NCBI GenBank assembly: GCA_049511835.1 | Contig: JBEKXN010000011.1 | Span: 19,015-83,014, forward strand | Source: Verrucomicrobiota bacterium | Lineage (GTDB): Bacteria; Verrucomicrobiota; Verrucomicrobiia; Limisphaerales; UBA11358 | DNA length: 64,000 bases | Direction: 5' to 3' | In this document: positions 59,288 through 61,333 of the stretch, piece after piece | Numbering within the stretch: position 1 is the stretch's first letter | How the letters are laid out: each line of letters opens with the position of its first letter | Notes under the pieces: generated by a model | The model's database searches: none | Told to the model about the DNA's origin: nothing | The model's input: only the letters and a program-made list of their open reading frames with translations | Program-made: the position numbers and the translations under genes

Positions 59288-61333
59288 TTACACCTTCGCG
59301 TAAACCTCTGCGCCTTTTTCCACAAACTCCTTCGACTTGGCTTCCATGCCCTTCTTCAAGGCCTCTTCCTCAGCAATCCCCTGCTCCGCCGCATATTTGC
59401 GGACGTCTTCGGTGATTTTCATCGAGCAAAAGTGCGGGCCGCACATGCTGCAGAAGTGCGCGGTCTTGGCGCCGTCCTGCGGCAGGGTTTCGTCGTGGAA
59501 TTCGCGCGCGGTGACGGGGTCGAGACTCAGGTTGAACTGGTCTTCCCAGCGGAATTCAAAGCGCGCCTTGCTCAACGCATTGTCGCGGTATTGCGCGCCG
59601 GGATGGCCCTTGGCCAGGTCGGCGGCGTGCGCGGCAATCTTGTAGGCGATGACGCCGTCTTTCACGTCTTTCTTGTCCGGCAGACCGAGGTGTTCCTTGG
59701 GCGTGACGTAGCAGAGCATCGCGCAGCCATACCAGCCAATCATCGCCGCGCCAATGCCGCTGGTGATGTGGTCGTAACCGGGCGCGATGTCAGTGGTGAG
59801 CGGGCCGAGGGTGTAGAATGGCGCTTCGTGGCACCACTCAAGCTGCTTGTGCATGTTTTCCTCGATCAGATGCATGGGCACGTGGCCCGGGCCTTCATTC
59901 ATTACCTGCACACCCTTGGCCCAGGCGCGGGTCGTGAGTTCGCCCTGCACCTGGAGTTCGCCGAATTGCGCCTCGTCGTTGGCGTCGGCAATCGAACCGG
60001 GCCGCAGGCCGTCGCCGATGCTGAAGGCCACGTCGTAGGCGGCCATGATGTCGCAGATTTCGTCCCAATGCGTGTAGGTGAAATTCTCCTGATGATGCGC
60101 GAGGCACCACTTGGCCAGGATGCTGCCGCCGCGCGAGACGATGCCGGTCATGCGGTTGGCGGTGAGCGGAATGAAGCGCAGCAGCACGCCGGCGTGGATG
60201 GTGAAGTAGTCCACGCCCTGCTCGGCCTGTTCGATGAGGGTGTCGCGGTAAATTTCCCAGGTAAGGTCTTCGGCCTTGCCGCCGACTTTTTCCAGCGCCT
60301 GATAAATCGGCACGGTGCCGATGGGCACGGGCGAGTTGCGGAGAATCCATTCGCGCGTGGCGTGGATGTTCTTGCCGGTGGACAGGTCCATGACAGTGTC
60401 CGCGCCCCACTTGGTGGCCCAGCGCATTTTCTCGACCTCCTCCTCGATGCTCGACGCGACGGCGCTGTTGCCGATGTTGGCGTTGATTTTCACGAGGAAA
60501 TTGCGCCCGATAATCATCGGTTCGGACTCGGGGTGATTGATATTGGACGGGATGATGGCGCAGCCAGCGGCGACTTCGGAACGGACGAATTCAGGCGTGA
60601 TTTCGCGCGGGATGTGCTGGGGGAAGCGGCGGAAGACGGAGGGGGTGAAGGGTGAAGGCGAGACGTCTTCACCAGCGGGCGGGACGCCCGCGCTCCCCGC
60701 GTGTTGTTTGTCCAAATCGTTGCGGACGATGTCACGCGAAAGATCACCGATTCGGGACAAATCGGCGGACAGGCGGGACGCCTGTGCTACCCTCATATTC
60801 TCGCGGATGGCGATGAATTCCATTTCGGGCGTGATGATGCCGGCGCGGGCGTAGGCGAGCTGGGTGACCACCTTGCCGGGCTTGGCGCGGAGCGGTCTGC
60901 GGCCGATTGCGGACTTTGGACTCTGGACTTCCTCCTTCGCTTCGCTTCGTCGCGACAAGTTGGACCTTGGACTTTGGACTTTGGACTCTTCAACGTCGCC
61001 TCGGGCGTGAATCCAGTTTGCCCGCAGCGCGGGCAAACCCACCTCCACTGAACCACCGAAGTTCGGATCGCCCCACGGACCGGAGCAGTCATAGACGCGC
61101 ACTGGTTCATTTTGCTCGATGGCGCCAGTGTAGGATTTGGTGGGGGTGAGTTCGATTTCACGCATGGGCACGCGGACGTCAGGGTGGATTTGACCCGCGA
61201 CGTAAACGCGTTTGGAGCCGGGCAGTTGTTCTAAACTGTGAGGGGAAGATTCGACGACGCGAGACGCGTCGTCGGACAGGCGGGACGCCTGTGCTACCCG
61301 TGCGGGTTCGAACGAATCTTTGGTCGCAATCAT
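59288..61333 (-). CDS. thiC: Phosphomethylpyrimidine synthase ThiC (681 aa, with repeat-derived insertions)
   Basis: [46 protein letters not shown] riboswitch upstream. Confidence 0.98.
60675..61299. repeat. REP-like elements inside the thiC coding sequence
   Basis: Identical 27-mers at 60766-60792 and 61273-61299, variant at 60675-60698, TTGGACT-type heptamer runs at ~60910-60988. Confidence 0.8.

Follow-up and report, generated by a model that had tools for sequence, protein, structure and literature searches.

The thiC gene of a Verrucomicrobiota bacterium carries repeat-derived sequence, in an unbroken reading frame, at four sites, and three of these segments share their build with the ends of RAYT transposase cassettes embedded in essential genes of the same genome. 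We consider it probable, with moderate confidence, that RAYT-linked deposition placed the segments in tolerant loops, that a filter for open reading frame and protein fold acted on them, that they persist as near-neutral sequence, and that recombination and overwriting turn them over. The gene lies in a window of 64,000 nucleotides (the whole stretch of DNA that was analysed), which contains the following features:

59288–61333, minus strand: thiC coding sequence, 681 aa, phosphomethylpyrimidine synthase (PF01964, 612 bits; PF13667 also matched).
61241–61303, minus strand: site 1, a true in-frame 63-nt insertion at approximately residues 11–31, with a GTAG twin-hairpin unit at 61252–61297.
60902–60985, minus strand: site 2, AGTCCAA-type heptamer runs in place of an ancestral loop with a KPxDNG-like motif.
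60930–60959, minus strand: a third dispersed repeat, nested within the site-2 heptamer run.
60745–60793, minus strand: site 3, a GTAG twin-hairpin unit, residues 181–196.
60650–60697, minus strand: site 4, a GGAG twin-hairpin unit, residues 213–228, whose tag overlaps resident Gly-Ser-Ala codons.
61426–61549, minus strand: aptamer of a TPP riboswitch, conserved in relatives; its match to Rfam RF00059 (E = 2e-6) has 40.1 bits and so falls short of the gathering score, 54.3.
61521–61544, minus strand: an extra REP of a different GTAG family, within the variable P3 stem of the riboswitch.

A preliminary description of this DNA had placed at least four repeat-derived segments in a 681-aa ThiC with intact catalytic motifs, all of them N-terminal to the start of the barrel, and this outline holds. 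The motifs TIHAG, SRGG, EGPGH, GYDHI and CSMCGPHFC are all found, the barrel and the CX2CX4C motif at residue 628 are intact, and all four repeat segments precede the barrel start, KINANIGNS, at residue 282 (60464–60490). With a barrel, metal-binding His motifs and the C-terminal CX2CX4C, a loop described in PMC4389238, the protein would, as judged from its sequence, be a genuine ThiC. As a separate observation, residue 258 (60560–60562) is Cys here and Arg in relatives and in Caulobacter (GRAIIP motif), and the Cys reading is matched by one contig of sequencing run X5.

Mapping of the segments on a predicted ThiC model, a step that had been suggested, used an alignment of 140 sequences (mean pLDDT 87, pTM 0.88); an earlier model from 53 close relatives (pLDDT 46.9) was set aside. 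The pLDDT is 40–52 for residues 1–30, 58–60 for 121–140 and 50–62 for 181–220, versus mostly 87–98 in the flanks, and all four sites are low-confidence, predicted surface loops outside the barrel in this model. Sites 3 and 4 fall within a linker that, by sequence alignment, has approximately 10 residues in Caulobacter, and short ThiC homologues (427–430 aa) align from residue 245 of the query, the whole repeat-bearing region being absent from them.

The host genome (3.8 Mb, 57% GC) is repeat-rich and assembled in 91 contigs; close relatives are labelled Verrucomicrobiia or Limisphaerales in the database, and the sequencing runs that contain the same DNA come from peat and wetland. An assembly of this kind could in principle produce chimeras at repeats, and a heptamer unit missing from the thiC gene of one relative (G087, see below) is perhaps such an error. 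However, contigs of three other runs (X2, X3 and X4, possibly a single campaign) extend over the repeat sites with 0 differences, bridging at least 31 nt on both sides at site 2 only, and the database protein P0002 is identical to this ThiC over residues 1–457, with 16 differing positions thereafter. The same repeat alleles also recur in many other species with the reading frame kept, and we regard the chance that the segments are chimeras as negligible.

Two observations concern the surroundings of the gene. Partial copies of the thiC 3′ end lie downstream at 53024–53141 and approximately 20767–20899 on the minus strand (97% over 34 nt and 89% over 65 nt), and since many relatives have similar fragments, the end of thiC appears to be a preferred point of gene accretion. 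Directly after thiC, at 58468–59268 on the minus strand, there is a 266-aa ORF that is AT-richer and absent from the codon-model gene calls; it looks horizontally acquired and presumably resembles DUF2971 proteins.

The repeat elements turn out to be more elaborate than first described. A 27-nt palindrome does occur in two identical copies, at 61273–61299 and 60766–60792, both read as RVAQASRLS, but the element itself is a 46-nt twin hairpin. At sites 1, 3 and 4 this REP unit has a common build, consisting of a tag, 1 nt, a 7-bp stem with a TCC loop, 1 nt, and a second stem of 9–10 bp. The tag is GTAG at sites 1 and 3 and GGAG at site 4, and is unpaired at all three in predicted folds. The first hairpin, of 22 nt with a 7-bp stem and 3-nt loop, lies within the size range of GTAG REPs (20–40 nt, with a GC-rich stem of 6–9 bp). 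The GGAG variant at 60675–60696 is indeed read in a different frame, as GSAGVPPA, and the heptamer runs that had been noticed within the coding sequence lie at approximately 60960–60987 and at 60911–60929.

Alignment with homologues delimited the segments as gains at sites 1, 3 and 4 and as a net loss at site 2. The site-1 insertion follows residue 8–10, and sequence of the empty site recurs on its two sides as an imperfect direct repeat of 6 nt. The site-3 segment has 25 aa here versus 15 in empty alleles (+10 residues), and site 4 adds approximately 7 residues relative to relatives. The claim of four inserts stands insofar as all four segments are repeat-derived and absent from ancestral-type alleles, but site 2 is a replacement, with 39 residues in place of the 51–52 found in 43 of 45 ancestral-type alleles (a net loss of 12–13 residues). 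The replaced loop had a KPxDNG-like motif that is missing here; 50 of 66 relatives retain it, as does Caulobacter ThiC. When up to 4 mismatches are allowed over 20 nt, the third repeat, nested in this site, matches the genome at 22–23 places; some of these are chance matches, and several are nested in heptamer runs too.

The REP units of thiC are single and all in the same orientation and thus are not REPINs, which are inverted doublets; such inverted doublets are present at sites 3 and 4 of some relatives. At three loci (L089 and L091 at site 1, L120 at site 3), extra palindromes lie inside the REP hairpin loop, again with the frame kept. We had considered that site 1 might be a recent within-genome copy of site 3, and dropped this idea, since other species have one allele without the other and the second hairpin is not the same at the two sites. 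Conversion between the first hairpins of the two sites is possible.

That the segments belong to dispersed families, as had been proposed, is confirmed by a genome-wide census. Tagged hairpins number 261 in the genome, compared with 10 in an equal-size order-5 Markov control, and period-7 runs number 141, compared with 0. The exact 27-mer has just two matches in the genome, both inside thiC, and a lack of other copies had been named as an outcome that would refute a repeat origin. Taken literally this is the case, but in substance it is not, since the 21-nt core of the 27-mer matches the genome exactly at 4 places, with one mismatch at 30 and with two at 32. The count of intragenic and intergenic copies, also suggested earlier, places 107 of the 247 hairpins tagged GTAG, GGAG or GTGG inside genes, a share below the 80% coding share of the genome yet by no means small, with gene calls from a simple hexamer model. 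The genes that hold these 107 copies number 55 and are mostly core genes. Of the 247 copies, 55 are followed by another hairpin that has no tag, 75 of the 107 intragenic REPs have an inverted partner, and only one of the 107, itself a GTGG match, is read in the sense frame in which GTAG yields TAG. Besides thiC there are 54 REP host genes, among which 39 score above the NCBIfam cut-off, 10 below it and 5 have no match, and a few of these hosts are probably chance matches of the hairpin pattern. They include nine tRNA-charging proteins, DnaE, DnaG, PriA, MutS, Mfd, UvrA, ClpB, MetH and PurL. The heptamer runs, 55 of which lie deep inside genes, have units of many types, are often arranged as inverted pairs, and contain A-N-T in 93 of 141 cases (background 31%). 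A heptamer run lies within 250 nt of 7 of 14 genes for four-helix-bundle proteins (PF05635), two of which are flanked by inverted runs in the manner of REPs around RAYTs.

We compared alleles among relatives at 70 loci, picked as the top matches and for the most part from the same genus; 66 of them could be parsed and 4 could not. Classes were assigned by sequence patterns, and 1–9 of the 66 were left unclassified per site. Site 1 (57 classified) is empty in 43, carries the present allele in 8, another repeat in 5 and something else in 1. At site 3 (65 classified), 16 alleles are empty, 11 are of the present type, 8 are other REP forms and 30 are heptamer or other runs. For site 4, the 66 parsed genes include 9 with REPs, 28 with heptamers and 25 with a short form. 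The site alleles are shuffled: all four combinations of site-1 and site-3 states are common (22, 33, 28 and 37) among the 120 best-scoring database proteins, as sorted by a pattern that misfiled the query's own allele, and the site-4 allele of the present genome is combined with other alleles at sites 1–3 in P0013, P0022, P0027, P0081, P0085 and P0107. In one relative (locus L102, G087:C180), a heptamer unit is missing at site 3, which causes a frameshift and an early stop in thiC; this may be slippage, either as a cost or as a possible on/off switch, or an assembly collapse.

These patterns lend no support to a fresh invasion of thiC by REPs, as the preliminary description had envisaged, since the alleles are common to species whose barrel DNA has a median identity of 87%. 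On a barrel-DNA tree of 61 genes, the site-3 REP requires 9 changes for 9 carriers and the site-1 allele 6 changes for 7 carriers. We found no recombination tract around the site-3 allele, the flank similarity being 0.832 among carriers and 0.826 for non-carriers. Because the tree is star-like (18 of its 58 branches are starred) and the flanks of carriers are no more alike than those of others, horizontal exchange of patches and an old origin with repeated overwriting fit these data indistinguishably.

Persistence of the alleles across species could be taken as a sign that the new peptides are selected for protein function, for example as a binding surface of ThiC, and raised indel rates in genes of PVC bacteria, with thiamine metabolism among the pathways (reported by Kamneva 2010), could be counted in the same direction. 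However, pN/pS is 0.59 at site 3 (11 alleles) and 0.49 at site 1 (6 alleles), compared with 0.12 and 0.11 in the barrels of the same carriers, which suggests that the peptides are only weakly constrained. Unrelated peptides interchange at each site, pLDDT is low there, and dozens of enzymes unrelated to ThiC contain these same peptides. We therefore consider selection on the peptides very improbable, and the segments are likely near-neutral and tolerated as low-cost. What constraint there is would, on sequence grounds, be explained by the nucleic-acid hairpin or by younger age, not by the peptide.

The hairpins themselves are well preserved, and this raises the question of whether they are kept for a role in the thiC mRNA, where they might slow translation, protect against nucleases or adjust the TPP riboswitch. 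At site 3 all 187 of 187 stem cells are paired, and at site 1 99% of 102 cells, with three and two pairs, respectively, altered on both sides, some of which change amino acids. Synonymous divergence is 0.13 and 0.24 in the inserts versus 0.35 and 0.30 in the barrel, and folding z-scores are −4.4 and −2.5. There is also the REP in P3 of the riboswitch, whose family has 78 genomic matches within 3 mismatches of 22 nt and which is found in 16 of 63 classified upstream regions of relatives. (The riboswitch was seen by its E-value, with no match at the Rfam gathering threshold. Just before it, at 61576–61604 on the minus strand, TTGACG and TAGCTT are spaced by 17 nt, with similar sequences in many relatives; this is probably the promoter, at a score below the threshold of the promoter scan.) Yet most relatives have these sites empty or filled with heptamers, site 2 shows no fold here (z +0.3) and site 4 a weak one (z −1.4), and related rows inflate the shuffle test. 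The same pattern would arise if the inserts were younger, if other copies converted them, or through palindrome correction, a mechanism able to keep hairpins paired. An mRNA role thus appears improbable to us, and it is likely that pairing would be kept by processes at the DNA level (transposase recognition, palindrome correction, conversion by other copies) rather than for the peptide.

A search for RAYT genes, another check that had been recommended, gave 20 matches to the Y1 transposase family PF01797 in the genome. Three of these domains are flanked by REPs and lie in frame within host genes:

G000:C9:53244–55724 (locus L080): RAYT domain in thrS.
G000:C12:67336–70230 (L034): RAYT domain in priA.
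G000:C19:9836–12676 (L040): RAYT domain in yoaA/dinG.

Against NF047646, with a cut-off of 80, these domains score 81.1 bits in PriA, 74.6 in ThrS and 60.3 in YoaA; the HUH and Tyr motifs are visible in all three, and the cassettes have no start or stop of their own. The thrS and priA cassettes both begin and end in twin hairpins (4 of 4 ends) built like those of thiC: a tag, 1 nt, a 7-bp stem with a TCN loop, 1 nt, and a second stem of 9–10 bp. The four ends in yoaA are single hairpins, two of which are within 2 nt of the 22-mer of thiC. The GTAG REPs of thiC thus have cognate RAYTs, in cassettes flanked by like REPs in the same genome.

The yoaA site was surveyed in 30 of 89 matching genomes, those with the highest scores, and 25 of these loci could be parsed; there are 9 REP-RAYT-REP alleles, 2 with a REP doublet only, 13 inverted heptamer arrays and 1 near-empty allele. 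All of these have lengths in multiples of 3, the REP-only doublets are of the same type as the cassette ends at L162 and L163, and no direction of change can be inferred from this series. Matches to the yoaA RAYT in other long open frames (1041–1469 aa; G122:C97, G150:C52, G020:C26 and G061:C21) are probably further embedded cassettes. The thrS cassette is found in 4 of 30 loci examined (L125–L154), none of which has a REP-only allele, and 19 of the 30 have unrelated inserts of 57–106 aa at this site. In 7 of the 30 the C-terminal half of thrS is a separate ORF, with the N-terminal half 1.5–4.6 kb away on the same contig in 6 of the 7, apparently an essential gene split around cargo. In thiC here, there is no RAYT, and the gene is thus not a REPtron. 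Nor was one found in thiC of 137 other matching genomes of the genus, where the longest open frame is 733 aa (8 genomes have split or contig-cut matches), and the best 120 of 7999 scored database proteins have neither a RAYT nor any other extra domain, with at most 715 aa and ThiC domains only.

The thiC units look like solo cassette ends, and from this we infer their placement by a RAYT. Under the favoured reading, a RAYT would nick single-stranded REP DNA, and an end would be deposited, or would remain after loss of a cassette. Deposition would need a short match to resident codons and an open frame, and events that break frame or fold would be purged. Recombination of short patches via the conserved flanks could carry filled alleles from one species to another, and other repeats could later overwrite them. 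Several findings sit uneasily with a role for RAYTs: thiC holds no RAYT, the thrS loci include no REP-only allele, no recombination tract was seen, heptamer runs and the third repeat occupy the same sites and have no demonstrated link to RAYTs, and the units in thiC are single and same-oriented whereas most intragenic REPs have an inverted partner.

A rival account is transposase-independent: double-strand-break repair or template switching pastes any abundant repeat into tolerant loops through short matches, and RAYT cassettes are one passenger of such slots. It would explain why three unrelated repeat classes occupy the same thiC sites, and why resident codons resemble the incomer (Arg-Val-Ala at site 3, Gly-Ser-Ala at site 4, and Ile-Ala-Asp for the commonest site-3 heptamer); the imperfect direct repeat at site 1 and the unrelated inserts in the thrS slot fit as well. 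However, each REP unit copies a whole cassette end, tag first, as a random fragment would not, cognate cassettes are present in the same genome, and a REP-only form occurs at the yoaA cassette site. We consider this account rather unlikely. It cannot be cleanly separated from RAYT-linked deposition, and pasting at short matches probably accounts for the heptamer alleles under either.

RAYT-linked deposition allows a bolder extension, which we offer tentatively and hold to be doubtful, though possible. Tolerant loops of core genes would be standing, exchangeable slots, translated RAYT ends would be live cleavage and landing sites for transposases fused to housekeeping proteins, and alleles would swap between species in patches of tens of bases. 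If true, this would be an intein-like but non-splicing homing system that continually rewrites surface loops, and thiC would be its extreme record, with five repeat elements in the coding sequence and a sixth in the riboswitch.

Since REPs within genes have been described before, this phylum included, their mere presence is unsurprising, and the thiC case is more elaborate than first described yet a variant of a published phenomenon; the embedded RAYTs in other genes are more striking. What is new is a clean comparative case, in which repeat alleles of many kinds replace one another at four fixed loops of one enzyme, and one such allele has eliminated a loop motif that is conserved out to Caulobacter. 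To this is added the structural match between thiC alleles and the ends of the transposase cassettes that essential genes carry. The idea that RAYTs spread REPs, and that intragenic REPs are RAYT footprints, becomes testable. For annotation, there is a warning that such peptides in these genomes are repeat-derived and are not functional motifs. In a literature search with thin coverage of subscription papers and bioRxiv supplements, we found no paper that treats repeat alleles of ThiC, nor any on host genes with an in-frame RAYT.

The preliminary description had cited the RPEs of Rickettsia as its only precedent. RPEs are palindromes translated in frame at surface positions of housekeeping proteins; they either have a CGTC tag or are longer, and their host is an intracellular bacterium. 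The thiC segments are like them in being palindromes read in frame in surface loops of a housekeeping protein. They are unlike them in their GTAG and GGAG tags, the CGTC or RPE-1 signature being absent, in the interchange of several repeat classes at the same loops, and in belonging to a free-living peat lineage; they function like RPEs but are not RPEs. Tandem heptamers, for their part, are known as cyanobacterial STRR. PMC3733652 and Delihas 2011 (PMC3184786), a review of repeats fused into ORFs, cite RPEs as the intragenic palindromes of Rickettsia, and PMC2700814 describes intragenic tandem heptamer elements of Geobacter metallireducens. Unlike the latter, the runs described here have many unit types, form inverted pairs, lie near four-helix-bundle genes, and at site 2 have replaced a conserved loop.

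The nearest precedent comes from the same phylum, so Rickettsia is not the sole one. According to Di Nocera et al. 2013 (PMC3733652), Opitutus terrae has the most intragenic GTAG REPs (families GTAG-17 to -20; 70 O. terrae rows), with GTAG- or GTGG-tagged short stems in frame in uvrA, helicases, purL and ligase, several or double inserts per gene, and a lean to repair and replication genes. A term search of its four supplements found neither thiC nor thiamine. The peptides of its GTAG-19 family (GTGVPPV, GRDARAT, VARASRP) are of the same kind as those in ThiC, a comparison made by encoded peptides only. Compared with that account, as far as consulted, the present case differs in its twin hairpins, heptamer replacements, turnover at fixed sites and RAYTs within host genes. 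Quentin et al. 2018 (PMC6006769) report frame-keeping REP insertions inside tnpAREP genes of subclass 2.4, and state that ‘unexpectedly long proteins’ were discarded as fusions or errors. The cassettes described here resemble the REPtrons of that study in having a HUH/Y1 domain between inverted tagged hairpins, but they differ in lying within thrS, priA and yoaA, while thiC has the ends only, with no transposase.
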